From a virus, in the IMG/VR virus record IMGVR_UViG_3300022885_000010: a DNA stretch of 64,000 nt; one strand, 5' to 3'. The notes beneath the pieces were generated by a model. It ran no database searches, was not told the DNA's origin, and worked only from the letters and a program-made list of their open reading frames with translations. Position 1 is the stretch's first letter. Every line of letters starts with the position of its first letter. Shown here in pieces: positions 10,753-62,342 of this stretch. The position numbers and the translations under genes were made by a program.

Positions 10753-11136
10753 ATGATACTTAAAAAATTATATATTGATGAAATCACATCTATTATTCAA
10801 ATATTCCATTCTAATAATAATAATAAAATTTATTATGAAGATAGTAATGGATTTTGGGTAAAAAGCGAATTTGATTCTAATAACAATAGAATTTATTATG
10901 AAGATAGTAATGGATTTTGGGTAAAAAGCGAATTTGATTCTAATAATAATGAAATTTATTATGAAAATAGTGATGGATATTGGTCAAAAAAGGAATTTGA
11001 TTCTAATAACAATCGAGTTTATTGGGAAACTGATGATGGATATTGGGTAAAACAAGAATATAATTCTAATAATATAGGAATTTATTTTGAAAGTAGTGAT
11101 GGAACTATATTTGACGAAAGACCTAACAAAAAATAA
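10753..11136 (+). CDS. 21-aa repeat family protein
   Basis: MILKKLY cap, DSNNNxIYYEDSNGFWVKxEF repeats, RPNKK end. Confidence 0.85.
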   Translation: MILKKLYIDEITSIIQIFHSNNNNKIYYEDSNGFWVKSEFDSNNNRIYYEDSNGFWVKSEFDSNNNEIYYENSDGYWSKKEFDSNNNRVYWETDDGYWVKQEYNSNNIGIYFESSDGTIFDERPNKK

Positions 11137-11170
11137 AATTTGTTTATATCGATTTATTTTCGTAAGTTTG
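11130..11170 (+). promoter_or_regulatory. Bacteroidota-type promoter copy 2
   Basis: AAAATAAAA-TTTG-N20-TAAGTTTG, overlaps repeat-gene stop. Confidence 0.85.
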
Positions 11171-11195
11171 TAATTATTTTAATACAGAGGAAACA

Positions 11196-11873
11196 ATGAA
11201 CAATTTATATTTTGATATAGAAACATATCCAATATATGATTCTTACAAAGAAGATGAACTATTAATACCTATATGGGAACGGTTTTGTAATTACAAATTA
11301 AATAAAAAGCCAGAATACGAAGATGAATTAAATAGATACGATCTATTATGGGATAGTTCTTCGTCATTATATCCTACATTTGCAAAGATATTATGTATAT
11401 CATTTATATATGATAATGATGGGGAATTACACACTGGAACATTAAAAGGTGAAGAGTCCGAAATAATAGGACAGTTCAATGAATTACTAGAGAACTATAT
11501 AGATTTTATAGTAGGTCATAACATACTACAATTTGATTTACCATTTATAATTAGACGTGCTATGGTAAATGGGATTCCATATAAGAATTTACCTAAATAT
11601 CTACACGTAGTAGGTAAAAAACCATGGAATTTACATTATATATATGATACTAAGCAAAAATTAACATTTACTTCTAACTTCGGTGGTGTTATAACACCAT
11701 CATTAGAACAAGCGTGTTATGAGGCTAATATAGACACACCTAAGACCGATATAGTCAATGGTGGTAATTTAGTACCATTTATCAAATCTGGTGGTGATAT
11801 AGAGCTTATATATGAGTATTGTGAGAAAGATGTTTATACTACATATAGGTTATATGAATGGATGAACCAGTAG
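11196..11873 (+). CDS. PolB-like DEDDy 3'-5' exonuclease
   Basis: FDIET, GHNILQFDLPFI, YCEKDV. Confidence 0.88.
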   Translation: MNNLYFDIETYPIYDSYKEDELLIPIWERFCNYKLNKKPEYEDELNRYDLLWDSSSSLYPTFAKILCISFIYDNDGELHTGTLKGEESEIIGQFNELLENYIDFIVGHNILQFDLPFIIRRAMVNGIPYKNLPKYLHVVGKKPWNLHYIYDTKQKLTFTSNFGGVITPSLEQACYEANIDTPKTDIVNGGNLVPFIKSGGDIELIYEYCEKDVYTTYRLYEWMNQ

Positions 11874-12073
11874 TCACACACATCGCTTTTGTTGTGGATT
11901 ATATTTATATACATTCAATACAAGAACCGAGATCAAACAGAACTATAGTTATAATGTTTTATAATTTTTTGGTGACTGGTGATCATAGAGTTCCATATTC
12001 CATCTATGGCTATCAGATTGAATATAATAGAATATACGAATCATACGTAAAATGGAAATTAATTAATGGATGA
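11858..12073 (+). CDS. WKL-tail family small protein
   Basis: C-terminal YESYVKWKLING. Confidence 0.65.
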   Translation: MDEPVVTHIAFVVDYIYIHSIQEPRSNRTIVIMFYNFLVTGDHRVPYSIYGYQIEYNRIYESYVKWKLING

Positions 12074-12272
12074 GCATGACTTTATATACTTCAGAGATGA
12101 TCATATAGAGGTAGATTTATATCCACCACAAACAGTGAATATGAAATTTGCTTATAATTTTTATAATAGTTTCCAACCTATAAACGAAGATTATTATAGG
12201 CGTTATGGGAATGAATTTAGTTATATACGTATTTTTTATAATTATGTAAAATGGAAATTAATTAAGGAGTGA
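12066..12272 (+). CDS. WKL-tail family small protein
   Basis: C-terminal YNYVKWKLIKE. Confidence 0.65.
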   Translation: MDEHDFIYFRDDHIEVDLYPPQTVNMKFAYNFYNSFQPINEDYYRRYGNEFSYIRIFYNYVKWKLIKE

Positions 12273-12275
12273 AAT

Positions 12276-12839
12276 ATGCCATGCTATTCATATTATGGTG
12301 AAAAGGATGATAATTGTGGTTGTAGAAATACACCAGAACCAACTAAGAAACAAAAAAAAGAATCCAAACGTCTTAATGTTTTGTATTACGTTAGATGTAA
12401 TTCGTTATTACTAAATAAATTAATTGAATGTACGATTACAATGTTAAATCCGAGTATGGATCCAGTAATATCTAAATCTATATTTGAAGATATTATTAAT
12501 AAATCTAGATTATCATTTAATATGTTAGAATTGGTATTTGATGAGAATGATACACTAAAGGAATTAAATAAGATTAAACATAAGTACGATTCCAGTCTAT
12601 GTGCTATATTAAGTTATCTTGATATGGAACTGATGGTAGATAATGTTATATCATCAAGTGAATATGAGAACTTCAAAGAGGACATCTACGAATTCTGGGT
12701 AGAACATAAAAGAAAAGATATAGATAGGGTTACTGCTGAACTCAATCGTGTGTTTAGTGAGACTGAAATGCATTTGTTAATTAATAATATTATAAATGAA
12801 GCTAAAGAACTTAAAATAATTCAGATGGTTATACTATAA
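12276..12839 (+). CDS. hypothetical protein
   Basis: ORF track. Confidence 0.65.
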   Translation: MPCYSYYGEKDDNCGCRNTPEPTKKQKKESKRLNVLYYVRCNSLLLNKLIECTITMLNPSMDPVISKSIFEDIINKSRLSFNMLELVFDENDTLKELNKIKHKYDSSLCAILSYLDMELMVDNVISSSEYENFKEDIYEFWVEHKRKDIDRVTAELNRVFSETEMHLLINNIINEAKELKIIQMVIL

Positions 12840-13047
12840 GAGTACGAGATTTTAACAATCGTGTAATTTATCATAAAGATATTAATGAAAATTGGCAAAT
12901 GTATAAATATGATTCTAAAGGTGACTGTATTTATATTGAAATAGTTACGGTGAATGGGCAAAAAAAGAATTTGATTTTAATGGTAATGAAATTTATTATG
13001 AACGTAATGATGGTACTATAATAGATAATCGACCTAACAAAAAATAA
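12796..13047 (+). pseudogene. Frameshifted 21-aa repeat family gene
   Basis: MKLKNL start, YDSKGDCIYIE and EFDFNGNEIYYERNDGTIIDNRPNKK* in different frames; two indels in A-runs. Confidence 0.7.
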
Positions 13048-21243: not shown

Positions 21244-21753
21244 ATGAAACTTAAAATATTATATATCAATGTAACTGATGAAATAAATATATACAATTCA
21301 AATAATAAATGGGTTTATTGGGAATATAATGATGAATTTTGGGTAAAAAGAGAATTTGATTCTAATAATAATCGAATTTATCGTGAAGATAGTAATGGAT
21401 TTTGGGTAAAAAGCGAATTTGATTCTAATAATAATGAAATTTATTGGGAATATAATGATGGAAATTGGGTAAAAAGAGAATATGATTCTGATAGTAATGA
21501 AATTTATCATGAGGATATTAATGGATTCTTTTATATAAAAGAATATGATTCTAATAATAATGAAATTTATTATGAAGATAGTGATGGAGATTGGTCAAAA
21601 AGAGAATTTGATTCTAATAACAATCTAATTTATCATGAAGATAGTGATGGAACTATAATAGATAACAGACCTAAAGAAGTTAAAAGATTAACTCATAAAG
21701 AAATATGTGAATTAATTGGATTTGATGTAGAAATAATTAAAGAGAAGGAATAA
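21244..21753 (+). CDS. 21-aa repeat family protein with LTHKEICELIG tail
   Basis: MKLKILYINVTDE cap, repeats. Confidence 0.85.
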   Translation: MKLKILYINVTDEINIYNSNNKWVYWEYNDEFWVKREFDSNNNRIYREDSNGFWVKSEFDSNNNEIYWEYNDGNWVKREYDSDSNEIYHEDINGFFYIKEYDSNNNEIYYEDSDGDWSKREFDSNNNLIYHEDSDGTIIDNRPKEVKRLTHKEICELIGFDVEIIKEKE

Positions 21754-21762: not shown

Positions 21763-22200
21763 ATGAAACTTAAAATATTATATATCAATGTAACTGATGA
21801 AATAAATATATACAATTCAAATAATAAATGGGTTTATTTTGAAAATAGTAATGGAGATTGGATAAAAAGAGAGTTTGATTCTAATAACAATGAACTTTAT
21901 TGTGAAGATAGTGATGGATTTTGGGTAAAAAAGGAATTTGATTCTAATAACAATGAACTTTATTATGAAGATGGTGATGGATTTTGGGTAAAAAACGAAT
22001 TTGATTCTAATAATAATGAAATTTATTATGAAGATAGTAATAGATTTTGGGTAAAAAAGGAATTTGATTCTAATAACAATGAACTTTATTATGAAGATGG
22101 TGATGGATTTTGGGTAAAAAACGAATTTGATTCTAATAATAATGAAATTTATTATGAAGATAGTAATGGTATGATAACGGATAACAGACCTAAGAAATGA
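21763..22200 (+). CDS. 21-aa repeat family protein
   Basis: Same cap, GMITDNRPKK end. Confidence 0.85.
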   Translation: MKLKILYINVTDEINIYNSNNKWVYFENSNGDWIKREFDSNNNELYCEDSDGFWVKKEFDSNNNELYYEDGDGFWVKNEFDSNNNEIYYEDSNRFWVKKEFDSNNNELYYEDGDGFWVKNEFDSNNNEIYYEDSNGMITDNRPKK

Positions 22201-22634
22201 AACTTAAAATATTATATATCAATGTAACTGATGAAATAAATATATACAATTCAAATAATAAATGGGTTTATAGTGAAAATAGTAATGGACTTTGGGTAAA
22301 AATCCAATATGATTCTAATAATAATGAAATTTATTGGGAAAATCATGATGGACTTTTGGTAAAAAAAGAATACGATTCTAATAACAATCTAATTTATTGT
22401 GAACATAGTAATGGATTCTTTTATATAAAAGAATTTGATTCTAATAACAATGAACTTTATTGTGAATATAGTAGTGGACTTTGGGTAAAAAAAGAATTTG
22501 ATTCTAATGGTAATATACTTTATCGTGAAAATAGTAATGGACTTTGGGTAAAAATCCAATATGATTCTAATAATAATGAAATTTATTGGGAAAATTATGA
22601 TGGAACTATAATAGATAGTAGAACTAAAAAATAA
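22197..22634 (+). CDS. 21-aa repeat family protein
   Basis: Same cap, stop inside promoter. Confidence 0.85.
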   Translation: MKLKILYINVTDEINIYNSNNKWVYSENSNGLWVKIQYDSNNNEIYWENHDGLLVKKEYDSNNNLIYCEHSNGFFYIKEFDSNNNELYCEYSSGLWVKKEFDSNGNILYRENSNGLWVKIQYDSNNNEIYWENYDGTIIDSRTKK

Positions 22635-22692: not shown

Positions 22693-23193
22693 ATGGGATT
22701 GATAGAACACGCACAAAAAGAATTACGTTTGGCAGGTGTAGATAGTAAAGAAGCTATGTACGATGGTATGTTGTATAATGCAATTATGGAATTAATAACA
22801 ACATTCAGTAAACAAGGACATTCTGGTTATTCAGCAAGAATAGTAATTGATATATTTAACAAATTAGCTAATTTTGAACCTATATCACCTTTAACGTATG
22901 AAGACGATGAATTTAATGATAATAATAAAAATATAAGACGTTCTGATGTATTTAGAGAAACCGAAGATGGTAGATTTTACTATATCAGTGCTATACAATG
23001 GTTAAATCCAGATGGTAGTGTGTGGACTGGTACTGCTACTTGTAATGGAAAATCAATATCATCAACACAATATATTAAACATAGAAATATGCCATTAAAA
23101 ACATTTACTATTGAAGTAGATGATGATTTTAATGTATTAAATAGTGATGATTTGAATGATGTGTTTGTTTATTATGATAGATATGAAACTTAA
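22693..23193 (+). CDS. Conserved-looking phage hypothetical protein
   Basis: HAQKEL..FSKQGHSGYSA motif recalled from phage proteins. Confidence 0.7.
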   Translation: MGLIEHAQKELRLAGVDSKEAMYDGMLYNAIMELITTFSKQGHSGYSARIVIDIFNKLANFEPISPLTYEDDEFNDNNKNIRRSDVFRETEDGRFYYISAIQWLNPDGSVWTGTATCNGKSISSTQYIKHRNMPLKTFTIEVDDDFNVLNSDDLNDVFVYYDRYET

Positions 23194-23683
23194 AATATTA
23201 TATATCAATGTAACTGATGAAATAAATATATACAATTCTAATAATAATGAAATTTATTGGGAAAATAGTAATGGAGATTTGGTAAAAAGCGAATTTGATT
23301 CTAATAACAATAGAATTTATTATGAAGATAGTAATGGAGATTGGTCAAAAAGAGAATATGATTCTAACAGTCTTGAAATTTATTATGAAGATAATGATGG
23401 ATTTTGGGTAAAAAGCGAATTTGATTCTAATAATAATGAAATTTATTGTGAATATAATGATGGAAATTGGGTAAAAAGAGAATATGATTCTAATAACAAT
23501 AGAATTTATTATGAAGATAGTGATGGATATTGGTCAAAAAGCGAATTTGATTCTAACAGTCTTGAAATTTATTATGAAGATAGTAATGGATTTTGGGTAA
23601 AAAAAGAATTTGATTCTAATAACAATAGAATTTATTATGAAGATAGTAATGGTATGATAACGGATAACAGACCTAAGAAATGA
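23183..23683 (+). CDS. 21-aa repeat family protein
   Basis: MKLKILYINVTDE cap, GMITDNRPKK end. Confidence 0.85.
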   Translation: MKLKILYINVTDEINIYNSNNNEIYWENSNGDLVKSEFDSNNNRIYYEDSNGDWSKREYDSNSLEIYYEDNDGFWVKSEFDSNNNEIYCEYNDGNWVKREYDSNNNRIYYEDSDGYWSKSEFDSNSLEIYYEDSNGFWVKKEFDSNNNRIYYEDSNGMITDNRPKK

Positions 23684-24496
23684 TACTTAAAATATTATAT
23701 ATCAATGTAACTGATGAAATAAATATATACAATTCAAATAATAAATGGGTTTATTGTGAAAATAGTAATGGACTTTGGGTAAAAATCCAATATGATTCTA
23801 ATAATAATGAAATTTATTGGGAAAATAGTAATGGAGATTTGGTAAAAAGCGAATTTGATTCTAATAATAATGAAATTTATTGTGAATATAGTGATGGAGA
23901 TTGGTCAAAAAGAGAATATGATTCTAATAATAATAGAATTTATTGTGAAGATAGTGATGGAGATTGGTCAAAAAGAGAATATGATTCTAATAATAATGAA
24001 ATTTATTGTGAAGATAGTAATGGAGATTGGGTAAAAAAAGAATTTGATTCTAATAATAATAAAATTTATTATGAAGATAGTAATGGATTTTGGGTAAAAA
24101 GCGAATTTGATTCTAATAACAATAGAATTTATTATGAAGATAGTAATGGATTTTGGGTAAAAAGCGAATTTGATTCTAATAACAATCTAATTTATTGTGA
24201 AGATAGTGATGGAGATTGGTCAAAAAGAGAATATGATTCTAATAACAATGAACTTTATTGTGAAGATAGTAATGGATTTTGGGTAAAAAAGAGAATATGA
24301 TTCTAATAATAATGAAATTTATTATGAAAATAGTAATGGATTTTGGGTAAAAAACGAATTTGATTCTAATAATAATTGTATTTATTGGGAAGATAGTAAT
24401 GGATATTGGATAAAAAAAGAATTTGATTCTAATAACAATCTAATTTATTTTGAAAATAGTGATGGTGGAACCTATGATTATAGACCTAACGGATGA
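23680..24496 (+). pseudogene. Longest 21-aa repeat family gene, frameshifted in an A-run near 24290
   Basis: ORF stops at 24300; repeats continue in shifted frame to DYRPNG* at 24496. Confidence 0.75.
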
Positions 24497-24690
24497 AATA
24501 TAAAACTATATATAATAATAAGAAAATTTATTTTTGGTGTATATATACGTATGACCACAAAATTAATTGTATTATAGGTAGGAAAATACATACATCACGA
24601 ATAGAATATGATTCTACTGGTTCTCCACATTATTACGAATATGATAGTGATTATAATTTAATACAAATCCCCAAACCTAAGCAATGGTAG
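24493..24690 (+). CDS. MxxKxxY-tag small protein
   Basis: MKYKTIYNN; degenerate EYDS repeat. Confidence 0.6.
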   Translation: MKYKTIYNNKKIYFWCIYTYDHKINCIIGRKIHTSRIEYDSTGSPHYYEYDSDYNLIQIPKPKQW

Positions 24691-24923
24691 TTAAAACAGT
24701 ATATAATAATGTACATATAATATATGATTTGTGTTTCGTCACAATATATCATATTAGAGATAATATTGAGTGTAGAATTGTGCATAGTTATGATTATGAT
24801 AAGGTACATCATATCTATAGTGATGGTTGGTGGTCAAAACATGAATACGGTCCTGGTAATGAAGAAATTTATTATGAAGATGGTGATGGAATTATAATAG
24901 ACAGCAGACCTAACAAAAAATAA
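24684..24923 (+). CDS. Divergent repeat family protein
   Basis: MVVKTVYN, WWSKHEY..EIYYEDGDG, RPNKK end. Confidence 0.7.
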   Translation: MVVKTVYNNVHIIYDLCFVTIYHIRDNIECRIVHSYDYDKVHHIYSDGWWSKHEYGPGNEEIYYEDGDGIIIDSRPNKK

Positions 24924-32304: not shown

Positions 32305-33027
32305 ATGAGTGAATCACATGATAATCCCGGAAATTATTTTAGTAATTTCCTAAATGAGAATAAACCTCACTTCAAACAAGAAGTAAAAGTAGCAATAGGA
32401 TTACCTATGTTATTTCCGTTTATACCGATTAAATTCTTTAATTCATATCAAATGCTTAATAAACCTACTAATCACGTTGTAGTGGCTATGCCTGGCTCAA
32501 TAACAACAATAGCAAGAAATAACATATGTGATGTAGCTGAACAACAGAAATGTACTCATGTTATGTTCTTAGATACTGATATGACATTTCCATCAGATAC
32601 AATACAGAAGTTATTAGCTCATGATATGGATATAGTTGGTGGATTGTATTTTGAAAGATATGAACCATATAAACCAGCTGTATTTTGGAAACACCCTGAT
32701 GGTAGTGGTGATTATGCACTTAGAAATGATATACCTTATGGTGAAACTATAGAGTGTGATGCATTAGCTACTGGTTGTATGTTAATTAAATTAGATGTTC
32801 TTAGAAAGTTAGAGAAACCTTGGTTTGAGTATAGAGTAGCTGAATATGGTTCTAAGAAAGAAATTAAATTCTTTTCTGAGGATATAGTATTTAGTGAACG
32901 AGTTAAGGAATTAGGATATAAGATATTCGTTGATACTTCTATTGAATGTGGTCATATATTGAATGATGTAGAGGTTAATCGTGCTTGGTGGGAAGCTCAA
33001 CCTAAACAAGATGTTATTAGTAGATGA
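32305..33027 (+). CDS. GT2-like glycosyltransferase
   Basis: IARN, THVMFLDTD, GCMLIK, SEDIVFS, CGH. Confidence 0.82.
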   Translation: MSESHDNPGNYFSNFLNENKPHFKQEVKVAIGLPMLFPFIPIKFFNSYQMLNKPTNHVVVAMPGSITTIARNNICDVAEQQKCTHVMFLDTDMTFPSDTIQKLLAHDMDIVGGLYFERYEPYKPAVFWKHPDGSGDYALRNDIPYGETIECDALATGCMLIKLDVLRKLEKPWFEYRVAEYGSKKEIKFFSEDIVFSERVKELGYKIFVDTSIECGHILNDVEVNRAWWEAQPKQDVISR

Positions 33028-33395
33028 TACTTAAAACTTTATATAAAGTTATATATCCTATATGGTTGTATGATTCTAATAATAATAGAATTTATATTGA
33101 AAATAGTAATGGGTCTTGGATAAAACAAGAATATGATTCTAATAATAATAGAATTTATTGTGAAGATAGTGATGGATTTTGGGTAAAAATAGAATTTGAT
33201 TCTAATAATAATAAAATTTATTATGAAAATAGTAATGGATTCTTTTATATAAAAGAATATGATTCTAATAATAATGAAATTTATTATGAAGATAGTAATG
33301 GATTTTGGGTAAAAAGCGAATATGATTCTAATAATAATGAAATTTATTATGAAGATAGTAATGGTATGATAACGGATTATAGACCTAAGAAATGA
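33024..33395 (+). CDS. 21-aa repeat family protein
   Basis: MILKTLYKVIYPIWLY cap. Confidence 0.85.
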   Translation: MILKTLYKVIYPIWLYDSNNNRIYIENSNGSWIKQEYDSNNNRIYCEDSDGFWVKIEFDSNNNKIYYENSNGFFYIKEYDSNNNEIYYEDSNGFWVKSEYDSNNNEIYYEDSNGMITDYRPKK

Positions 33396-33898
33396 TACTT
33401 AAAAAATTATATATTGATACTGTAATTCATAATCCTATAGTGCTATTTGATTCTAATAACAATCTAATTTATTGTGAAGATAGTGATGGAGATTGGGTAA
33501 AAAAAGAATTTGATTCTAATAATAATAAAATTTATTGTGAAGATAGTAATGGATTTTGGGTAAAAAGCGAATTTGATTCTAATGATAATTGTATTTATTG
33601 GGAAAATAATAATGGAGATTTGGTAAAAAGCAAATATGATTCTAATAATAATAGAATTTATTGGGAAAATTATGATGGATTTTGGTCAAAAAGAGAATTT
33701 GATTCTAATAATAATCTAATTTATCGTGAATATCATGATGGATTTTGGGTAAAAAACGAATTTGATTCTAATAACAATAGAATTTATTATGAAGATAGTA
33801 ATGGATTTTGGGTAAAAAGCGAATTTGATTCTAATAATAATGAAATTTATTATGAAGATAGTAATGGTATGATAACGGATAACAGACCTAAGAAATGA
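33392..33898 (+). CDS. 21-aa repeat family protein
   Basis: MILKKLYIDTVIHNP cap, GMITDNRPKK. Confidence 0.85.
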   Translation: MILKKLYIDTVIHNPIVLFDSNNNLIYCEDSDGDWVKKEFDSNNNKIYCEDSNGFWVKSEFDSNDNCIYWENNNGDLVKSKYDSNNNRIYWENYDGFWSKREFDSNNNLIYREYHDGFWVKNEFDSNNNRIYYEDSNGFWVKSEFDSNNNEIYYEDSNGMITDNRPKK

Positions 33899-34275
33899 TA
33901 CTTAAAAAATTATATATTGATACTGTAATTCATAATCCTATAGTGCTATATGATTCTAATAATAATCGAATTTATCGTGAATATAATGATGGGCACTGGC
34001 TAAAACAAGAATATGATTCTAATAATAATGAAATTTATTGGGAAGATAGTAATGGATATTGGGTAAAAAGAGAGTTTGATTCTAATAATAATGAAATTTA
34101 TTGGGAAAATAGTAATGGAGATTTGGTAAAAAGTGAATTTGATTCTAATAACAATAGAATTTATTATGAAGATAGTGATGGATTTTGGGTAAAAAACGAA
34201 TTTGATTCTAATAACAATAGAATTTATTGGGAAAATAGTAATGGAATTATATTTGATAACAGACCTAAAAAATAA
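33895..34275 (+). CDS. 21-aa repeat family protein
   Basis: Same cap, stop inside promoter. Confidence 0.85.
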   Translation: MILKKLYIDTVIHNPIVLYDSNNNRIYREYNDGHWLKQEYDSNNNEIYWEDSNGYWVKREFDSNNNEIYWENSNGDLVKSEFDSNNNRIYYEDSDGFWVKNEFDSNNNRIYWENSNGIIFDNRPKK

Positions 34276-34342: not shown

Positions 34343-35101
34343 ATGAACAAAGTTATAGCATATCATGGAAATGGACTTGGTTATACAAATAAAGATACAT
34401 ACTTAAAATTAAAAGATTATATATTAACTGATAGTACAGTATATAAATTACCAGATAATTTATTATGTTTAACTTGGTCTGACTATACAGATAAAATAAC
34501 TGATGCTGAATTAACATATACTAATAGAGGATATGGTGAATTACTTAGATTGGGTATAGATGGTGGGCTTGGAGATTGGTATCAATATAATAAAGTAGTT
34601 AATACAGACCATCCAGATAAATGGGTTAACATAAATAAATACTTTCTATTGAAGGACTTTCTATTAACAACCGACTTATCTAAGTATGATTATGTAGTGT
34701 GTATGGATGCAACTGATGTTCTTATCAATGGTGATTTAAATGAGTTAATCAAATATTTTGAAACTTTGAATTGTAACACACTATTCAACTCCGAAACTAA
34801 TATGTTTCACGTAAAAACAACACAGCCGTTCCAAGAAGAGATAAATAGAAATCATGGAATAGACGGTATAAACAAGAGATATAAATATCTAAACTCTGGT
34901 TTCTATATAACACGTAAAGATGAATTATATAAATTAGTTGATTTTGTATTAAATTATTTTTTAACTATGCTTACCACTAGTGACCAGTGCATATGTCACA
35001 ATTACTATAAATTAAATTATCCTAATGTTAGAGTTGATTTAAACGATGATGTAACGCAATGTCTATTTGATAACACTGATATTCGTGATATTAATCTATG
35101 A
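34343..35101 (+). CDS. GT-A fold glycosyltransferase (PLOD-GT-like)
   Basis: VVCMDATDV, LFNSE, YLNSGFYI, SDQ. Confidence 0.7.
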   Translation: MNKVIAYHGNGLGYTNKDTYLKLKDYILTDSTVYKLPDNLLCLTWSDYTDKITDAELTYTNRGYGELLRLGIDGGLGDWYQYNKVVNTDHPDKWVNINKYFLLKDFLLTTDLSKYDYVVCMDATDVLINGDLNELIKYFETLNCNTLFNSETNMFHVKTTQPFQEEINRNHGIDGINKRYKYLNSGFYITRKDELYKLVDFVLNYFLTMLTTSDQCICHNYYKLNYPNVRVDLNDDVTQCLFDNTDIRDINL

Positions 35102-35469
35102 TATTTAAAACTTTATATAAAGTTATATATCCTATATGGTTGTATGATTCTAATAATAATGAAATTTATTATGAACATAGTAATGGATATTGGGTAAAAA
35201 AGGAATATGATTCTAATAATAATGAAATTTATTATGAAGATAGTAATGGATTCTTTTATATAAGAGAATATGATTCTAATAATAATCAAATTTATTGGGG
35301 AAATAGTAATGGATATTGGTTTAAAAGCGAATTTGATTCTAATAATAATGAAATTTATTGTGAAGATAGTGATGGAGATTGGTCAAAAAGAGAATATGAT
35401 TCTAATAATAATGAAATTTATCGTGAAGATAGTAATGGAACTATACGAGGTAAAAGACCTAAAAGATGA
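35098..35469 (+). CDS. 21-aa repeat family protein
   Basis: MIFKTLYKVIYPIWLY cap, IRGKRP end. Confidence 0.85.
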   Translation: MIFKTLYKVIYPIWLYDSNNNEIYYEHSNGYWVKKEYDSNNNEIYYEDSNGFFYIREYDSNNNQIYWGNSNGYWFKSEFDSNNNEIYCEDSDGDWSKREYDSNNNEIYREDSNGTIRGKRPKR

Positions 35470-48874: not shown

Positions 48875-49004
48875 AAATATATATACTGACGATGATATAT
48901 TACTCTATGCTATATGGAAACCGAGAATGGTTTTATGGGGTATATCTATATTTGGATTGGAAGATTATATGTCTGTTTTTGATACCGATGGATTTTTACT
49001 ATGA
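48864..49004 (+). CDS. MxxKxxY-tag small protein (46 aa)
   Basis: Hand translation MKIKNIYTDD...GFLL*. Confidence 0.5.
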   Translation: MKIKNIYTDDDILLYAIWKPRMVLWGISIFGLEDYMSVFDTDGFLL

Positions 49005-49198
49005 TAGTTAAAAATTTATATATAAATTCCAATTTTAACTGTATCATGTACGTCAAGGATAACGAATACAATATAATATATGGTTGTTATATACATGTAG
49101 GTGGGTATTGGGTAAAACGTGTTATAGGTTCTAATAATAAACAAATATATTATGAAAATAATCATGGGTTTATAATAAATGAAAGACATAAGAAATGA
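49001..49198 (+). CDS. Divergent repeat family protein
   Basis: MIVKNLY; YWVKRV..SNNKQIYYEN. Confidence 0.7.
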   Translation: MIVKNLYINSNFNCIMYVKDNEYNIIYGCYIHVGGYWVKRVIGSNNKQIYYENNHGFIINERHKK

Positions 49199-49749
49199 TA
49201 CTTAAAAAATTATATAATGATGTAACTGGTATCATGAATATATTAAATTCTAACGAGAATTCTATATTCTGGAAACACACTGATGGGTTTTGGGATATAC
49301 AAGAATATGATTCCAATGGAAATATAGTTTATTCTATTAATAGTTTTGGGAATTGGTATCGATGTGAATATGATTCTAATAATAATCAAATTTATCGTGA
49401 ATATAATGATGGGCACTGGCTAAAACAAGAATATGATTCTAATAATAATGAAATTTATTGGGAAGATAGTAATGGATATTGGGTAAAAAACGAATTTGAT
49501 TCTAATAATAATGGAATTTATTGGGAAAATAGTGATGGATATTGGGTAAAAAACGAATTTGATTCTAATAATAATGAAATTTATTGTGAAAATAGTAGTG
49601 GGCACTGGGTAAAAAGAGAATATGATTCTAATGGTATGATCTATTATGAGGATAGTGAAGGTGAGTTGGTAGATAACAGACCTAAAGAAAATAAAATTTG
49701 GAAGTTAATAAATAATTTCGTAAGTTTGTATTATAATTTTAAACAATAA
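49195..49749 (+). CDS. 21-aa repeat family protein reading through the promoter
   Basis: Ends RPKENKIWKLINNFVSLYYNFKQ (promoter translated). Confidence 0.85.
   Translation: MILKKLYNDVTGIMNILNSNENSIFWKHTDGFWDIQEYDSNGNIVYSINSFGNWYRCEYDSNNNQIYREYNDGHWLKQEYDSNNNEIYWEDSNGYWVKNEFDSNNNGIYWENSDGYWVKNEFDSNNNEIYCENSSGHWVKREYDSNGMIYYEDSEGELVDNRPKENKIWKLINNFVSLYYNFKQ
49688..49728 (+). promoter_or_regulatory. Bacteroidota-type promoter copy 15
   Basis: AAAATAAAA-TTTG-N20-TAAGTTTG. Confidence 0.85.
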
Positions 49750-50535: not shown

Positions 50536-50931
50536 ATGAAAAATGTAGAGTATAATATAGTAGATAATAAAATAGAATTGACTTGTAATTTGGATAATGA
50601 TTATGAATTATCATTAACTATATATAATAACGAAGATTACTTTGTATGTGACTTCACTATACATGATATATCTGATATTAATGATGTATTGGTTACAGGT
50701 GAGAATATATCATTGGAAGAGTTCGGTAAGAAAGCAAATATTAAATTCCCAGATTATAAGTTTAGATTGGTTAATAGAAATAATCAAACTATAGAATTAT
50801 TCAATTATATGGTTGAAAGTAATTATACACATAAAACTATAATATTAGCAACTGAAACTGGATTTGATAGTGTGTTCATTATAGATATTGAATATGCTGA
50901 GTTCGTGGAAGACTCATGTGATATGGCATAA
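50536..50931 (+). CDS. hypothetical protein
   Basis: ORF track. Confidence 0.6.
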   Translation: MKNVEYNIVDNKIELTCNLDNDYELSLTIYNNEDYFVCDFTIHDISDINDVLVTGENISLEEFGKKANIKFPDYKFRLVNRNNQTIELFNYMVESNYTHKTIILATETGFDSVFIIDIEYAEFVEDSCDMA

Positions 50932-51242
50932 TGATAGTTAAGAAATTATATAATATTGTGTTTGATCCAATAGATATAAACAACTCTAATAACAATCTAA
51001 TTTATTGGGAAAATAATAATGGATTTTGGGTAAAAAGCGAATATGATTCTAATAATAATGAAATTTATTATGAAGATAGTGATGGATTTTGGGTAAAAAG
51101 CGAATTTGATTCTAATAATAATGAAATTTATTGTGAAAATAGTAATAGATTTTGGGTAAAAAAGGAATTTGATTCTAATAATAATGAAATTTATTGTGAA
51201 AATAGTAATGGAACTATATTTGACGAAAGACCTAAAAAATGA
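50931..51242 (+). CDS. 21-aa repeat family protein
   Basis: MIVKKLY cap, GTIFDERPKK. Confidence 0.85.
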   Translation: MIVKKLYNIVFDPIDINNSNNNLIYWENNNGFWVKSEYDSNNNEIYYEDSDGFWVKSEFDSNNNEIYCENSNRFWVKKEFDSNNNEIYCENSNGTIFDERPKK

Positions 51243-51691
51243 TACTTAAAAAATTATATATTGATACTGTAATTCATAATCCTATAGTGCTATATGATTC
51301 TAATAATAATGAAATTTATTATGAAGATAGTAATGGATATTGGGTAAAAAGAGAATTTGATTCTAATAATAATGAAATTTATTATGAAGATAGTAATGGA
51401 TTTTGGGTAAAAAGCGAATATGATTCTAATAATAATCGAATTTATCGTGAAAATAATAATGGATTTTGGGTAAAAAGCGAATTTGATTCTAATAATAATG
51501 AAATTTATTGGGAATATAATGATGGATTTTGGGTAAAAAGAGAATTTGATTCTAATAATAATCTAATTAATCATGAATATAGTAATGGAATTATACGAGG
51601 TAAAAGACCTAAAGAAACAAAAAGATTAACTCATAAAGAAATATGTGAATTAATTGGATATAATGTAGAAATAATCAAAGAGAAGGAATAA
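51239..51691 (+). CDS. 21-aa repeat family protein with LTHKEICELIG tail
   Basis: MILKKLYIDTVIHNP cap; tail as in 21244. Confidence 0.85.
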   Translation: MILKKLYIDTVIHNPIVLYDSNNNEIYYEDSNGYWVKREFDSNNNEIYYEDSNGFWVKSEYDSNNNRIYRENNNGFWVKSEFDSNNNEIYWEYNDGFWVKREFDSNNNLINHEYSNGIIRGKRPKETKRLTHKEICELIGYNVEIIKEKE

Positions 51692-51695: not shown

Positions 51696-52331
51696 ATGAA
51701 GATGACTTTAGAAAAATTACTTAAAAATCAAGAATTTCCGAAGGAACTATTTGATAAAAACGGAAATCAAATTTATTGGGAACGTAGTAATGGAGATTGG
51801 TCAAAAAGCGAATTTGATTCTAATAATAATGAAATTTATTGGGAAAATAGTAATGGAGATTTGGTAAAAAGAGAATTTGATTCTAATAACAATCTAATTT
51901 ATTGGGAAAATAATAATGGATTTTGGGTAAAAAGCGAATATGATTCTAATAATAATGAAATTTATTATGAAGATAGTAATGGATTTTGGGTAAAAAGCGA
52001 ATTTGATTCTAATAATAATGAAATTTATTGGGAATATAATGATGGATTTTGGGTAAAAAGAGAATTTGATTCTAATAATAATAGAATTTATTGTGAATAT
52101 AGTGATGGATTTTGGGTAAAAAGCGAATTTGATTCTAATAATAATGAAATTTATTGGGAATATAATGATGGATTTTGGGTAAAAAGAGAATATGATTCTA
52201 ATAATAATAGAATTTATTGTGAACATAGTGATGGAATTATACGAGGTAAAAGACCTAACAAAAATAAAATTTGGAAGTTAATAAATAATTTCGTAAGTTT
52301 GTATTATAATTTTAAACGAAACAATAAATAA
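51696..52331 (+). CDS. 21-aa repeat family protein reading through the promoter
   Basis: MKMTLEK..FPKELFDKNGN cap; ends NKIWKLINNFVSLYY. Confidence 0.85.
   Translation: MKMTLEKLLKNQEFPKELFDKNGNQIYWERSNGDWSKSEFDSNNNEIYWENSNGDLVKREFDSNNNLIYWENNNGFWVKSEYDSNNNEIYYEDSNGFWVKSEFDSNNNEIYWEYNDGFWVKREFDSNNNRIYCEYSDGFWVKSEFDSNNNEIYWEYNDGFWVKREYDSNNNRIYCEHSDGIIRGKRPNKNKIWKLINNFVSLYYNFKRNNK
52261..52301 (+). promoter_or_regulatory. Bacteroidota-type promoter copy 16
   Basis: AAAATAAAA-TTTG-N20-TAAGTTTG. Confidence 0.85.
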
Positions 52332-55480: not shown

Positions 55481-55570
55481 TACTAATAATAGAATATTAA
55501 AACATTACTATAATGTTGTGTTGGGTGAGTATAGATATAAATATATTTACGGTTCACGTTGGTATAAATT

Positions 55571-55947: not shown

Positions 55948-55951
55948 ATCA

Positions 55952-58520: not shown

Positions 58521-59161
58521 TGGATCGCAAATATGGAGTAGAACCTTTATTATTAGATAATATTAGGATTGATTGTAATGAAATGATGTTATATATGTAT
58601 TTGCCTATTTACATAGAAGATTTACATGATAATATCAGAGTTCCAGAGAGATTAAAAATATTTAATTCATTGATATATAGTTCTATTGGTAACGTTCAAT
58701 CTATGGATATAAAATATAAATATATGTATCTAACTGTTAAATGTAGGTATGTAGATAGATATAACTTAGCTAATAGACCAGGTTGGCACTCTGATGGCTT
58801 TGGTACTGATGATATTAATGTTATATGGTGTGATAATGATCCAACTGTATTTTCTATACAAGACTTTGATTTATCTGATGACCATAATCTTTCTATGAAA
58901 GAGATGACTAATCAATGTAATCCGATAAACAATAAAACTTATAATAGTTATGATTTGTTATTATTAGATCAATACGTTATACATAGAAGTCCTATTATAG
59001 AAGATGCAAAAATAAGAACGTTTTTTAAATTGAGTTTCTCTAATTATAGATATAATTTAATAGGTAATTCTCATAATTATTTATTTGATTATAAGTGGGA
59101 TATGCATCAACGACAAATAGAACGAAATCATCCAATATATGAAGAATCTGATATTTCATGA
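58520..59161 (+). CDS. Putative Fe(II)/2-oxoglutarate-dependent oxygenase
   Basis: NRPGWHSDG (HxD), distal IHRSP, RTFFK. Confidence 0.65.
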   Translation: MDRKYGVEPLLLDNIRIDCNEMMLYMYLPIYIEDLHDNIRVPERLKIFNSLIYSSIGNVQSMDIKYKYMYLTVKCRYVDRYNLANRPGWHSDGFGTDDINVIWCDNDPTVFSIQDFDLSDDHNLSMKEMTNQCNPINNKTYNSYDLLLLDQYVIHRSPIIEDAKIRTFFKLSFSNYRYNLIGNSHNYLFDYKWDMHQRQIERNHPIYEESDIS

Positions 59162-59352
59162 TACTTAAAAAATTATATATTGATGAAATCCATATTCTTA
59201 TACGGATATTTAAATTTAATCTTAATATTAAGCGAGTTTATTGGGAAAATAGTAATGGATTTTGGGTAAAAAACGAATTTGATTCTAATAATAATGAAAT
59301 TTATTATGAAGATAGTAATGGAATTATCGATGATAACAGACCTAAAAAATGA
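59158..59352 (+). CDS. 21-aa repeat family protein (short)
   Basis: MILKKLYIDEI cap, RPKK end. Confidence 0.8.
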   Translation: MILKKLYIDEIHILIRIFKFNLNIKRVYWENSNGFWVKNEFDSNNNEIYYEDSNGIIDDNRPKK

Positions 59353-59579
59353 TACTTAAAAAATTATATATTGATACTGTAATTCATAATCCTATAGTGC
59401 TATTTGATTCTAATAATAATGAAATTTATTGGGAATATAGTAATGGACTTTGGGTAAAAATAGAATATGATTCTAATAATAATGAAATTTATTGTGAATA
59501 TAATGATGGATTTTGGGTAAAAAGAGAATATGATTCTAATAATAATCAAATTTATCGTGAAGATAGTAATGGTAAATAA
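59349..59579 (+). CDS. 21-aa repeat family protein, C-cap frameshifted
   Basis: DNRPKI cap present in shifted frame just after the stop. Confidence 0.75.
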   Translation: MILKKLYIDTVIHNPIVLFDSNNNEIYWEYSNGLWVKIEYDSNNNEIYCEYNDGFWVKREYDSNNNQIYREDSNGK

Positions 59580-59598
59580 AGGATAATAGACCTAAGAT

Positions 59599-59967
59599 AT
59601 GATACTTAAAAAATTATATATTGATGAAATCCATAATCCTATAGTGCTATTTGATTCTAATAATAATGAAATTTATTGGGAATATAATGATGGATTTTGG
59701 GTAAAAAGAGAATTTGATTCTAATAATAATCGAATTTATCGTGAAGATAGTAATGGATTTTGGGTAAAAAGCGAATTTGATTCTAATAATAATGAAATTT
59801 ATTGGGAATATAATGATGGATTTTGGGTAAAAAGAGAATATGATTCTAATAATAATGAAATTTATTATGAACATAGTGATGGAATTATACGAGGTAAAAG
59901 ACCTAACAAAAATAAAATTTGGAAGTTAATAAATAATTTCGTAAGTTTGTATTATAATTTTAAATAA
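59599..59967 (+). CDS. 21-aa repeat family protein reading through the promoter
   Basis: Ends RPNKNKIWKLINNFVSLYYNFK. Confidence 0.85.
   Translation: MILKKLYIDEIHNPIVLFDSNNNEIYWEYNDGFWVKREFDSNNNRIYREDSNGFWVKSEFDSNNNEIYWEYNDGFWVKREYDSNNNEIYYEHSDGIIRGKRPNKNKIWKLINNFVSLYYNFK
59909..59949 (+). promoter_or_regulatory. Bacteroidota-type promoter copy 18
   Basis: AAAATAAAA-TTTG-N20-TAAGTTTG. Confidence 0.85.
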
Positions 59968-59983
59968 CATTAGAAAAAGTAAA

Positions 59984-60739: not shown

Positions 60740-60921
60740 TTGAAATAACGATATTAGGATTAACATTTTTAATCATGGCATTAATAACTTTAATTATTAG
60801 TGTGTTTACTAATGACGAGTTTACAGATATTATTGGTGCATTTGCATTTATATCAATGGTATGCTTTATTGTTTCATTTGGAGTTTGGATTTATAATTTG
60901 TTATTGGGATTAATAAAATGA
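60736..60921 (+). CDS. Small two-TM membrane protein
   Basis: Almost entirely hydrophobic. Confidence 0.6.
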   Translation: MIEITILGLTFLIMALITLIISVFTNDEFTDIIGAFAFISMVCFIVSFGVWIYNLLLGLIK

Positions 60922-61529
60922 AAATATTACATTTGTATAGTGGTATTGGTGGGAATAGAAAGTTGTGGGGTAATGAACACCAAATTACAGCCGTTGAATT
61001 TGACCCTGATATTGCAGCAATTTATAAATCATATTTCCCTAATGATAAAGTAATTGTAGCAGATGCACATCAATTTTTATTAGAGAATTACAAGGATTAT
61101 GATTTCATTTGGAGCAGTCCACCTTGTCAAACACATTCAAGATTACTTACTTCTTGGAAAAACCAACCTAAATTCCAAAAACATATTAAATATCCTGATA
61201 TGAAGTTATATCAAGAGATACTATTTTTAAAACATTGGTTTGATGGTAAATATGTAGTTGAAAATGTAATTCCATACTATAAAGCATTGATAGAGCCAAC
61301 GATAGAATTACATAGACATAACTTTTGGACTAATATATCTTTAACTAAAAGAACATTTGAAGATGATAGAAAGCATAGGAACATTGAAGATAATACAACT
61401 GTATATGGTTTTAGTTTGGAAGGTATGAAGATAAAGGGTAAACGTCAAATATTAAGAAATTTAGTTAATCCTGAAGTTGGGAAGTACATATTAGATTCTC
61501 TAACTGATGATAATGTTAATCCATATTAA
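60918..61529 (+). CDS. Short C5-cytosine DNA methyltransferase
   Basis: LYSGIGG (motif I), SPPCQ (IV), VENV (VI). Confidence 0.88.
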   Translation: MKILHLYSGIGGNRKLWGNEHQITAVEFDPDIAAIYKSYFPNDKVIVADAHQFLLENYKDYDFIWSSPPCQTHSRLLTSWKNQPKFQKHIKYPDMKLYQEILFLKHWFDGKYVVENVIPYYKALIEPTIELHRHNFWTNISLTKRTFEDDRKHRNIEDNTTVYGFSLEGMKIKGKRQILRNLVNPEVGKYILDSLTDDNVNPY

Positions 61530-61540
61530 GTAAAGGTAAA

Positions 61541-61843
61541 ATGATGAAAGATATTGCAAATATAGCTTTGGTTGGTATCGTCTTATTCTATCTGATGATA
61601 CTTACTATTGAAAATAGTAATAGAATTAGAATTGAATTTCCATACAAATATACACCTGAAGAGTTACATGATGATAGTAATATAATATATAGATATGTTA
61701 AATGGGATAAGTGGAATAAAAGAATTGTAAAATTTAAAACTGATGAATTAGTTATACCAGTTATGAGAATAGTTAAGTGCAATGATGGTAAGATTGATAC
61801 GTTTTATAGATATAAACAACCGATGAATTATATAATATTTTAA
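61541..61843 (+). CDS. hypothetical membrane-anchored protein
   Basis: N-terminal hydrophobic segment. Confidence 0.55.
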   Translation: MMKDIANIALVGIVLFYLMILTIENSNRIRIEFPYKYTPEELHDDSNIIYRYVKWDKWNKRIVKFKTDELVIPVMRIVKCNDGKIDTFYRYKQPMNYIIF

Positions 61844-61883
61844 AAATAAAATTTGGAAGTTAATAAATAATTTCGTAAGTTTG
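61843..61883 (+). promoter_or_regulatory. Bacteroidota-type promoter copy 19
   Basis: AAAATAAAA-TTTG-N20-TAAGTTTG. Confidence 0.85.
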
Positions 61884-61913
61884 TAAATTAATAATCAAAG
61901 AAAAGGAATAAAA

Positions 61914-62342
61914 ATGTCAAAATACAAAGTAACTGATGAATATGCTAAATATTTAGAATTAGAAAATAAAATAGAATCGTTAGGAGGATTTGATTATGGT
62001 TATCTAATAAGTTCAAACGTAAAAATGATATTTAAAAAATTATATATGAATAAAGTCGATTATTCTATATGGATAAACGATTCCAATAATAATCAAATTT
62101 ATATTGGTAATGGTGGTGGTTATTGGTTTAGAAGAGAATTTGATTCTAATAATAATGTAATTTATCGTGAAAACAGTGATGGATTTTGGGTAAAAAGCGA
62201 ATTTGATTCTAATAACAATAGAATTTATTATGAAGATAGTGATGGAGATTGGTTTAAAAGTGAATTTGATTCTAATAGTCTTGAAATTTATTGTGAATGT
62301 AGTGATGGAACTATACGAGGTAAAAGACCTAACAAAAAATAA
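61914..62342 (+). CDS. 21-aa repeat family protein with extra unrelated N-terminal segment
   Basis: 37 foreign residues fused before MIFKKLY cap; RPNKK end. Confidence 0.8.
   Translation: MSKYKVTDEYAKYLELENKIESLGGFDYGYLISSNVKMIFKKLYMNKVDYSIWINDSNNNQIYIGNGGGYWFRREFDSNNNVIYRENSDGFWVKSEFDSNNNRIYYEDSDGDWFKSEFDSNSLEIYCECSDGTIRGKRPNKK

Follow-up and report, generated by a model that had tools for sequence, protein, structure and literature searches.

Why a phage would devote about one-eighth of a stretch of its DNA to a single short repeat is the question raised by this locus in a salt-lake phage, where mini YD-repeat genes occupy approximately 8.7 kb, or 13.5%, of the 64-kb stretch analysed (hereafter the window). 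An earlier note, made from the letters alone, had described about 22 paralogous genes built from a 63-bp repeat with a fixed scaffold and hypervariable positions. That description holds: checking all 22 starts yielded 21 ORFs with the repeat (64 to 211 amino acids, each with 1 to 9 internal units and a terminal half-unit) and one decayed copy at 12796. The window contains about 100–110 units, each exactly 63 bp long, all on the plus strand and distributed over eight arrays; a loose motif scan retrieved 96 units on the plus strand and none on the minus strand, and Tandem Repeats Finder reported period-63 arrays in eight regions with about 110 copies in total. Per-position entropy separates fixed positions (D1, S2, N3, N4, N5, I7, Y8, E10, G14, W16, K18, E20 and F/Y21) from variable ones (6, 9, 11, 12, 13, 15, 17 and 19). 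The number of units per copy, previously put at 1 to more than 10, runs from 1 to 12, the upper figure applying if the gene at 23680 is read through. The genes, together with a non-member nested among them, are as follows.

10753..11136, plus strand: YD-repeat gene, 127 amino acids, three full units plus a degenerate first unit and the terminal half-unit; promoter-like cassette downstream.
12796..13047, plus strand: decayed copy in which a 7-codon leader (MKLKNLK) precedes two frameshifts; remnants of units persist, and the tail is ..IIDNRPNKK.
21244..21753, plus strand: YD-repeat gene, 169 amino acids, bearing the family C-terminal helix motif (..KRLTHKEICELIG..).
21763..22200, plus strand: YD-repeat gene, 145 amino acids; its stop overlaps the following start (ATGA).
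22197..22634, plus strand: YD-repeat gene, 145 amino acids, closing its operon and followed by a promoter-like cassette.
22693..23193, plus strand: Tad3-like gene (Thoeris inhibitor family; PF25185, E 8.8e-30), nested among the YD genes and not a member.
23183..23683, plus strand: YD-repeat gene, 166 amino acids, six units and the terminal half-unit.
23680..24496, plus strand: YD-repeat gene interrupted near 24290, where a poly-A run has one additional A.
24684..24923, plus strand: divergent short member, 79 amino acids, one recognisable unit and the tail IIIDSRPNKK.
33024..33395, plus strand: YD-repeat gene, 123 amino acids.
33392..33898, plus strand: YD-repeat gene, 168 amino acids.
33895..34275, plus strand: YD-repeat gene, 126 amino acids, folded by AF2 (model m74ef232c3aea).
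35098..35469, plus strand: YD-repeat gene, 123 amino acids.
35466..35849, plus strand: YD-repeat gene, 127 amino acids.
49001..49198, plus strand: short divergent member, 65 amino acids, one unit and the tail.
49195..49749, plus strand: YD-repeat gene, 184 amino acids, without a normal stop; the frame enters a promoter-like cassette (tail ..IWKLINNFVSLYYNFKQ).
50931..51242, plus strand: YD-repeat gene, 103 amino acids.
51239..51691, plus strand: YD-repeat gene, 150 amino acids, with the C-terminal helix motif; second AF2 fold (model m9227956347f0).
51696..52331, plus strand: YD-repeat gene, 211 amino acids, seven units and the terminal half-unit, a family-type leader (..FPKELFD) and a tail reading through into the cassette.
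59158..59352, plus strand: short member, 64 amino acids, one full unit and the terminal half-unit.
59349..59579, plus strand: truncated member, 76 amino acids, with the stop directly after the glycine of its last unit.
59599..59967, plus strand: YD-repeat gene, 122 amino acids, with a read-through tail.
61914..62342, plus strand: YD-repeat gene, 142 amino acids, its usual leader preceded by a 37-residue N-terminal extension (internal Met at 62025).

Three copies are broken (12796, 23680 and 59349) and in another three the frame runs on into the cassette, so some copies may be dispensable. The gene at 23680 consists of an ORF of 206 amino acids and nine units (23680–24300) that continues in the +1 frame (24287–24496) with three units and the tail, and its poly-A break is also present in an independent contig, L089.

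The window genes result from lineage-specific expansion within a phage-only family whose members are free-standing mini YD-repeat proteins. This family comprises 5,099 clusters (50% identity) at E ≤ 1e-3 and 308 at E ≤ 1e-30; the Atlas clusters among those listed are 95–100% viruses, the top BFVD matches are uncharacterised proteins of phages, and the only cultured phage with a copy is Verrucomicrobia phage P8625. The family has no name, Pfam model or solved structure, and literature searches found no paper on it. Its usual form is a 125-residue protein with a leader, four units, an IIDNRPK cap whose residues I119, D121, R123, P124 and K125 are at least 90% conserved (alignments A1 and A3), and a short C-terminal helix. 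The leader, units, cap and optional helix are common to members such as P8625 gp42 and BFVD entries A0A0E3M0X5 and A0A6J7XC94. The window proteins are 39–75% identical to family members and have the same leader hairpin, n units of 21 residues and G-x-I-x-D-N/K-R-P-K cap; the optional helix motif, T..E....G....I.K, is found in the genes at 21244 and 51239, whereas most window copies lack the helix of the usual member. A further difference is that the family is usually represented by a single gene of 105–147 amino acids or a handful of them, whereas the window holds 22 copies of 1–12 units. Expansions have also arisen independently elsewhere, as tandem sets of 6 to 17 or more paralogs in other phages, and units are more similar within genomes than between them.

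Structural modelling shows the unit as a beta hairpin of the YD/Rhs type, predicted to stack into an extended sheet, as the earlier note had proposed. AF2 models of the proteins at 33895 and 51239 (pLDDT 92.5 and 90.1) contain 10–12 strands in a strict 21-residue period. Foldseek searches against the PDB returned 35 matches at E ≤ 1e-3, the top 29 all being shells (Rhs, Tc or teneurin) and the remaining six OspA mutants; the best shells (Rhs, teneurin and TcB/TcC) align at E 1e-6 with TMq 0.70–0.75 and an r.m.s.d. of 1.8–2.9 Å over approximately 105 residues. Fold matches in AFDB are named RHS or YD proteins, and MORN proteins of Orpheovirus and others are weak fold matches. The YD hallmark is also evident in the units themselves, with F/Y21-D1 in more than 90% of 83 internal units, G14 in 81 of the 83, and N or G at position 4. 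At the level of sequence profiles, PF05593 (YD/RHS repeat) had no match at E ≤ 1 among six window proteins, RHS_core reached 18 bits against a cut-off of 2000, and no Pfam model of any kind, nor any NCBIfam Rhs model, passed its threshold; some relatives exceed the 22-bit cut-off of an Rhs-repeat model (P0063 at 26 and P0270 at 40). Of the families that had been named for comparison, YD thus stands by fold and period, and DUF2963 and MORN fall away, their Pfam models being below threshold: DUF2963 was absent from the matches at E ≤ 1 for six window proteins, and the best of the MORN models (PF02493 and PF07661) was MORN_2 at E 0.64, with 10.8 bits against a cut-off of 29.6.

The likeness to Rhs/YD shells (7Q97, 8QJA, 8UY4; TcB-TcC 4IGL; teneurins) extends to the period of about 21 residues, the aromatic-Asp pair at the strand-to-turn transition and the Gly/Asn turns. 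However, those shells span approximately 700–1,400 residues or more, whereas the window proteins, at 64–270 residues, are unable to close a cocoon. They also lack a plug, autoproteolysis motifs and a toxin domain, and are instead cytoplasmic and phage-encoded, with their own ladder (I7, Y8, E10, W16, K18, E20) and their own caps. An identity as an Rhs polymorphic toxin or Tc BC component was rejected, the motifs PVxxxxGE and DPxG[LWF] being absent from all window frames and no toxin domain being found. Choline-, cell-wall- and glucan-binding repeats (CW_binding_1, TIGR04035) are likewise hairpins, approximately 20 residues long and reminiscent of G-x-W-x-K ... Y-Y-x-D/E-x-x-G in sequence, but they form exported solenoids that bind wall polymers. 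This identity was also rejected: TIGR04035 scored 28.5 bits (E 1.4e-6) against a cut-off of 147.7, and no choline- or glucan-binding structure appeared among the Foldseek matches.

The earlier note had predicted that the variable residues share a single face. In the models, strands cover positions 6–11 and 16–21 and never positions 5 and 15, which fits a register with variable residues on either side of the sheet and speaks against that prediction; weak covariation points the opposite way. On a sheet without a buried core, the conserved residues Y8, E10, W16, K18 and E20, rather than the variable ones, could form the functional surface. It is conceivable, if unlikely, that this Tyr/Trp/Lys/Glu ladder binds or mimics a periodic polymer (a glycan, cell-wall polymer or nucleic acid, possibly as a DNA mimic like Ocr/ArdA), with repeat number setting avidity or length and the variable positions merely tolerated. 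Despite the lack of a buried core, scaffold residues are at least 90% conserved across phages of 23–50% GC, which fits such a role, as do the streptococcal glucan-binding match, sub-threshold as it is, and the acidity of the window paralogs (pI 4.2–4.7, net charge -8 to -24); a large glycan-synthesis operon in the same phage is a further point in its favour. On the other hand, pI across the family has a median of just 5.0, not nearly as acidic as known DNA mimics, the glucan-binding match lies far below its cut-off, and the proteins have no hydrophobic leader or export signal, so wall polymers would be out of reach before lysis. A polymer-binding ladder also leaves unexplained why non-synonymous changes are in excess at set positions of the unit.

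This excess emerged from a minimum spanning tree connecting 74 distinct units, which required 305 non-synonymous and 32 synonymous changes. The whole-unit dN/dS, with positions not pre-selected, is approximately 1.7; 74% of the non-synonymous changes fall in the eight variable codons (6, 9, 11, 12, 13, 15, 17 and 19), for which the ratio is 2.4, against 0.33 for scaffold codons. Because AT bias (27% GC) lowers dS and the shuffling of old variants inflates counts, values above one are indicative rather than rigorous. The earlier note had staked its reading on departure from neutrality, and the variation is indeed site-specific and exceeds synonymous change.

That note had further likened the repertoire to antibodies. 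Site-specific variation on a constant scaffold speaks for the comparison, which nevertheless goes too far. Arrays 22197–24923 and 59158–62342 are reproduced letter for letter in two independent assemblies, which identifies the diversity as germline paralog diversity; unit order derives from short-read assemblies, and the other arrays were not independently reproduced. Variant letters are few in contigs from four runs, substitutions involve all bases rather than adenines alone, no YxDD reverse-transcriptase motif occurs in any window ORF, and no RT domain was found among the large ORFs scanned. Despite the confinement of variation to fixed codons, a hypermutating or DGR-like locus generating diversity anew within the population is therefore extremely improbable. 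The genes instead form a germline multigene family comparable to the expansions of ankyrin or MORN repeats. Those expansions in giant viruses and poxviruses likewise consist of many short-repeat binding paralogs in scattered arrays with strain-variable copy number, and differ in repeat family, virus type and host.

Several observations point to shuffling among the paralogs. Exact common blocks of 60–132 nt connect genes of distant arrays, unit order and copy number vary among related contigs, and all differences between the window and six related contigs fall inside YD genes. The genes at 21244 and 59599 have in common a near-identical block of approximately 230 nt (127 nt exact); one contig fuses the two across 38 kb and another holds the reciprocal junction, although these joints may be assembly chimeras. 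The rhs loci of E. coli take their name, 'rearrangement hot spots', from unequal recombination between rhs copies. Here too genomes that are otherwise identical differ where paralogous YD-coding DNA supplies homology, again with the reservation that chimeras are possible. Such joints, the variable unit order and copy number, and the broken and read-through copies could also be read as the marks of largely neutral or selfish coding minisatellites, spread by slippage and recombination, in which individual copies do nothing beyond the function of one ancestral gene. This we consider improbable: units keep a strict 63-nt length, free of internal indels over about 100 of them, frames are intact in 19 of the 22 copies, and every copy retains its leader and cap. 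Scaffold codons are under purifying selection, unrelated phages have expanded the family independently, and the arrays are kept despite the strong constraint on phage genome size.

The arrays close operons, ending at 10 of the 20 copies of a promoter-like, sigma-70-like cassette. Gad2 and NADAR lie within 10 kb of arrays, an RNA ligase (RnlA-like) and Pnk are encoded in the same region, and the nesting of Tad3 among YD genes recurs in other contigs. Glycosyltransferases and many unknown ORFs also adjoin the arrays, which makes context a weak guide. This context, with Tad3 inside an array and Gad2 and NADAR close by, is the one line of support for the earlier note's putative sequestration of host defence proteins or nucleic acids. 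Elsewhere in the window are the glycan-synthesis operon (1–10146) and a ClpP-type protease gene (62943).

The leader M-x-L/I-K-x-x-Y is common to 38 ORFs of otherwise different sequence, approximately 17 of them other small ORFs. It might act as a capsid-targeting sequence like that of T-even Ip proteins, the products being packaged and delivered together with the DNA so that host defences are disarmed on entry. T-even Ip loci are likewise polymorphic sets of small genes with a common N-terminal tag, but show no likeness in sequence or fold, and packaging here is putative. Polymorphism among related genomes, small acidic products, the T4-like RnlA-like and Pnk genes and the ClpP-type protease are consistent with this idea. 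We nevertheless regard it as quite improbable. Leader residues 16–19 form a sheet edge strand in the AF2 models (pLDDT 78–82, with residues 1–10 at 52–61), so the leader looks structural; few leaders contain an (I/L)-x-E cleavage-like site; the wider family has another leader (MKTIAQQL..FPFEIKD); and the genes sit in operons behind the sigma-70-like cassette amid early-type genes.

The reading we tentatively favour, at somewhat less than even confidence, is that these are phage-only open YD sheets, shuffled and diversified, and made early as binders of host molecules. By prediction, each protein is a cytoplasmic, acidic beta-meander sheet without a signal peptide, one edge capped by a degenerate N-terminal hairpin (MILKKLY...), followed by n 21-residue hairpins of identical length and closed at the other edge by the conserved ..G-x-I-x-D-N-R-P-K-K half-unit. 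Unit number sets the length of the sheet and, as the sequences show, is altered by unequal recombination and gene conversion in the 63-bp register, both within and between paralogs, with the scaffold held fixed and eight surface positions apparently driven to differ. The arrays may be translationally coupled through ATGA overlaps and form the 3' ends of early operons, each directly upstream of the next promoter-like cassette. Their products would then be stoichiometric binders, produced early in infection, whose variable surface positions engage proteins of the host, most likely those of its defences or other targets of takeover; paralogs differing in length and surface would broaden the range of targets or host strains covered.

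A bolder extension, which we think doubtful, is that open YD-sheet binders form a germline repertoire in many phage lineages, diversified by unit shuffling and by selection at the eight positions and serving as a broad-spectrum toolkit for counter-defence or host takeover. The repeats would also be true rearrangement hot spots, at which accessory genes are deleted, duplicated or swapped between co-infecting genomes in stretches of tens of kilobases, as at the 38-kb joint of the genes at 21244 and 59599.

To our knowledge, the YD/Rhs hairpin has been recognized solely as a wall element, in closed toxin cocoons and in teneurins. Here it is predicted to form a free, open sheet of adjustable length in thousands of phage proteins, a naturally modular, small and cysteine-poor beta scaffold. 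Repeated independent expansion, a site-specific non-synonymous excess and counter-defence neighbours (Tad3, Gad2 and NADAR) are features resembling those of proteins in host-virus arms races, so that new activities against host defences or in host takeover may reasonably be sought in this family. Should the paralog joints prove real, YD genes would also explain how accessory regions are reshuffled in these phages.

Translation of the 22 proposed starts of the YD genes, the paralogs built from a 63-bp (21-residue) repeat, yielded 21 open genes of 64-211 aa and one decayed copy, in agreement with the earlier count of about 22. They follow a common plan in which a leader of ~20 residues (MILKKLY.. 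or MKLKILY..) precedes n 21-residue units and a terminal half-unit closing in ..G-x-I-x-D-N-R-P-K-K. A loose motif scan of the window recovers 96 units, all of them on the + strand, and Tandem Repeats Finder places ~110 copies in eight period-63 regions; the YD genes account for 13.5% of the window (~8.7 kb). The decayed copy at 12796 carries two frameshifts and ends at 13047, the 59349 gene is truncated, and a poly-A run with one A too many splits the 23680 gene, which goes on in the +1 frame to 24496 and would hold 12 units if read through. The encoded proteins are acidic (pI 4.2-4.7) and lack a signal peptide.

With the unit numbered as D1 S2 N3 N4 N5 x6 I7 Y8 x9 E10 x11 x12 x13 G14 x15 W16 x17 K18 x19 E20 F/Y21, per-position entropy stays below 0.75 bit at 12 scaffold positions, reaches 1.14 bits at F/Y21 and lies between 1.4 and 2.4 bits at positions 6, 9, 11, 12, 13, 15, 17 and 19, which upholds the proposal of a fixed scaffold with hypervariable positions. 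Scaffold codons are nearly constant even synonymously (TCT 77/82, GGA 73/81 and GTA in all 57 valines). Pooled Nei-Gojobori estimates put overall dN/dS at 1.06, with scaffold codons at 0.33 and variable codons at 2.4. As this split was picked after the data had been seen, we added a count without pre-chosen positions: a minimum spanning tree of 74 distinct units contains 305 non-synonymous versus 32 synonymous changes (53.4 versus 9.6 sites), with the eight variable codons taking 74% of the former, and its dN/dS of ~1.7 is to be read in light of an AT bias that cuts effective synonymous sites and of shuffled old variants being scored as change. When synonymous sites are halved, variable codons still exceed 1. 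The earlier note had looked to dN/dS for a sign of selection, and the excess of non-synonymous change supports such a signal at the variable codons, subject to these two caveats. A reading of the arrays as largely neutral coding minisatellites appears improbable.

No above-threshold match to the YD units was found in Pfam, PHROGs or NCBIfam, nor did a profile search of PDB sequences with the family return any. With an alignment of 70 relatives, AlphaFold2 models the 126-aa paralog (33895-34275) at a pLDDT of 92.5 as 12 strands, located at unit positions 6-11 and 16-21. A second model, of the 150-aa paralog (51239-51691), has a pLDDT of 90.1. Foldseek aligns the 126-aa model with stretches of the shells of Rhs effectors, TcB/TcC and teneurins (E down to 9e-7, TMq 0.70-0.75, rmsd 1.8-2.9 A), and AlphaFold DB clusters named RHS or YD repeat protein also match. 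The structural suggestion of YD/RHS-like beta-hairpin repeats is thereby supported at the level of predicted structure. Like Rhs cores, in which an aromatic-Asp pair lies at the strand turn (10.1101/2024.02.26.582050), the YD genes place such a pair where the strand turns. Unlike Rhs toxins, the YD proteins are far too short for shell closure, and neither Rhs cleavage motifs nor a toxin domain was found in them; we therefore regard them as members of the YD-repeat superfamily and reject the Rhs-toxin reading. A homodimer prediction for the 126-aa paralog scored 0.00 and was counted neither for nor against a dimer.

Below threshold, the streptococcal glucan-binding repeat TIGR04035 matches proteins 33895-34272 (E 1.4e-6) and 23680-24297 (E 8.9e-5), suggesting that YD and YG-type hairpin repeats are distantly related in sequence. 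This weak glucan-repeat match, along with the acidity of the YD proteins, would also favour a function in which the conserved ladder of the unit (I7, Y8, E10, W16, K18 and E20) binds or mimics a periodic polymer, a reading that we consider unlikely.

It had further been proposed that the variable residues share one face. Strand side chains alternate between two faces, so the assignment hangs on the pairing register of two hairpins. With both hairpins at a position sum of 26, positions 7, 9, 11, 15, 17, 19 and 21 lie on one face and Y8, E10, W16, K18 and E20 on the opposite one; at a sum of 27, conserved and variable residues are mixed on each face. The DSSP pattern of the models fits a sum of 27, at least for the inter-unit hairpin; no strand includes position 5 or 15, and position 11 belongs to a strand in every unit but the first, which follows a short strand. 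Covariation hints that would put odd positions on the same face (17 with the next unit's 9, 21 with the next unit's 7, and 9 with 15) are weak and lineage-confounded. Mutual information between unit positions mostly reflects lineage and, as the variable positions are nearly all odd-numbered, cannot separate the registers. On the predicted structures, one shared variable face seems to us slightly less likely than not.

Over aligned blocks, the window is matched at 97.2-100% identity by six related contigs that come from different samples or assemblers; all 218 of their differences from it fall inside a YD gene, at aligned-block ends. In the contigs that span whole arrays (L089, 22043-33164; L085, 51987-64000), the arrays are identical to those of the window, frameshift included, which argues for fixed paralog diversity and not for ongoing hypermutation. 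A hypermutating locus is hardly credible given this identity. The DGR reading was rejected, with no reverse-transcriptase motif found in any ORF. The antibody analogy of the earlier note is not established. Two related contigs, L076 and L084, join the 21244 gene (at 21296-21525) to the 59599 gene (at 59654-59883), L076 skipping 38 kb; a third, L088, has the reciprocal 59599/21244 joint, and L091 has one hybrid gene versus three tandem genes in the window. These variants may be true recombinants, which would recall the origin of the rhs name; wrong assembly paths through a near-identical block of 230 nt could account for them just as well. In Logan contigs from four salt-lake runs, where the single-copy parts (Tad3 and flanks) were found, repeat words stand at 10-28x the depth of unique flanks, and contigs break in the repeats.

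Adjoining YD copies overlap at ATGA, where the ..RPKK stop meets the MILKK.. start, and each array's final gene leads into a conserved ~45-nt element (AAAATAAAATTTG..17 nt..TTTCGTAAGTTTGTA). The element occurs 20 times in the window versus 0.5 expected, always on the + strand and ahead of an operon.

Sites of the ~45-nt element in the window
10735, 11158, 13069, 14067, 17868, 20775, 22656, 24945, 30219, 34297; + strand; sites 1-10
35871, 36787, 39520, 47284, 49716, 52289, 56812, 59937, 61871, 62364; + strand; sites 11-20

Judged by sequence, it is probably a phage early promoter. The 5' part is A-rich and shares bases with the ..NKK-stop of the preceding gene. Genes 49195, 51696 and 59599 read into the element and end in a tail ..IWKLINNFVSLYYNFK, owing, for 51696 and 59599 at least, to a poly-A run that is one A shorter; we rejected this tail as a domain, as in at least these two genes it is the downstream element read through. 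Poly-A runs at gene ends and inside units (~24290, 49700, 52275, 59925; 24915) show one-A differences between copies, which leave one gene split and produce read-through in others. At 24915, one contig in each of three runs lacks one A (about a fifth of summed depth). No two YD genes are alike over their whole length, and exact blocks of 60-132 nt are common to genes in distant arrays, so that the genes are mosaics of units.

The MK[IL]KxxY leader also starts ~17 further small ORFs (38-90 aa).

Leader-sharing small ORFs
27500-28391, tandem cluster
48409-49001, tandem cluster
55458-56735, tandem cluster
21058, 24493 and 32021, further ORFs

These ORFs share the invariant M1, K4 and Y7 with the YD genes and little else; they may be degenerate relatives, or else the leader may serve as a shared N-terminal tag. 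That the YD proteins are packaged internal proteins, with the shared leader as their tag, strikes us as decidedly improbable.

Elsewhere, a word-indexed search found 778 relatives; searching exhaustively with a profile gave 5,099 clusters (50% identity) at E<=1e-3 and 308 at E<=1e-30. In the commonest form, of 125 aa, the leader MKTIAQQL..FPFEIKD is followed by four units and the IIDNRPK cap, and the protein closes with a short C-terminal tail drawn from a small set. The tail seen most often can be aligned to those of the 21244 and 51239 genes, T, E, G, I and K hardly varying, and is predicted as a confident helix in the 150-aa paralog (residues 132-139); most window paralogs have lost the tail. 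The ESM Atlas clusters listed are 95-100% viral, the top BFVD hits are phage proteins that are uncharacterised, and IMG/VR contains 338 confirmed loci. Only Verrucomicrobia phage P8625, among 50,697 deposited phage records, has a copy, which lies in its early region. A description of the family was not found in the literature searched.

Other viral contigs also contain tandem sets (at least 17 genes in 14 kb of L016, 7 in L008, and 6 each in L009 and L030), each with its particular leader and tail flavour; that of the window is the largest among the loci sampled. Unit identity is 0.62-0.68 within a genome versus 0.49-0.63 in nearly all between-genome comparisons, which points to lineage-specific expansion with concerted evolution. 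Long relatives carry domain fusions (SET, HAD_SAK_1, DUF5661, DUF7666 and Cu_amine_oxidN1), some of them, among P0012, P0063, P0139 and P0152, joining the repeats to DUF7666, SET or HAD_SAK_1. Because the fusions are mutually inconsistent and part of them may be run-on gene calls, we took no functional hint from them. Relatives P0164, P0174 and P0185 are 4,600-7,300 aa long, with 23-29 matching stretches each.

The window comes from a large tailed phage and makes up its early, accessory portion. GC content is 27%, all long ORFs lie on the + strand, and there are ten tRNA genes and a glycan-synthesis operon at 1-10146, besides genes for Thy1, a NUDIX protein, an endolysin, an RnlA-like RNA ligase and a polynucleotide kinase. 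The 67,945-bp JGI metagenome contig L087 matches the window at 100% identity, and the public runs with its sequence are salt-lake metagenomes. Three counter-defence families lie inside 10 kb.

Counter-defence families in the window
13142-14038, Gad2 (PF26128), from precomputed Pfam on contigs 99.9-100% identical to the window over the stretch
17917-18387, NADAR (PF08719), from the same source
22693-23193, Tad3 family (PF25185; E 9e-30), inside the first YD array

The same region as the YD arrays also has RNA repair genes and a DNA methylase, and in at least three genomic contexts (the window and the contigs L090 and L092) Tad3 has flanking YD genes. Two large ORFs, at 43194-46649 (1,151 aa) and 14519-16624 (701 aa), have no Pfam family, and the sole match of the latter is phrog_33734, of unknown function.

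A distribution confined to viruses, an early position, repeated and independent expansion and a site-specific excess of amino-acid change fit proteins engaged in a host-virus arms race. We tentatively favour, at somewhat less than even confidence, a role for the YD proteins as early cytoplasmic binders of host proteins, with varied lengths and surfaces. Across a very large family, the YD hairpin is, as the models have it, used here as a free, open and expandable phage protein.
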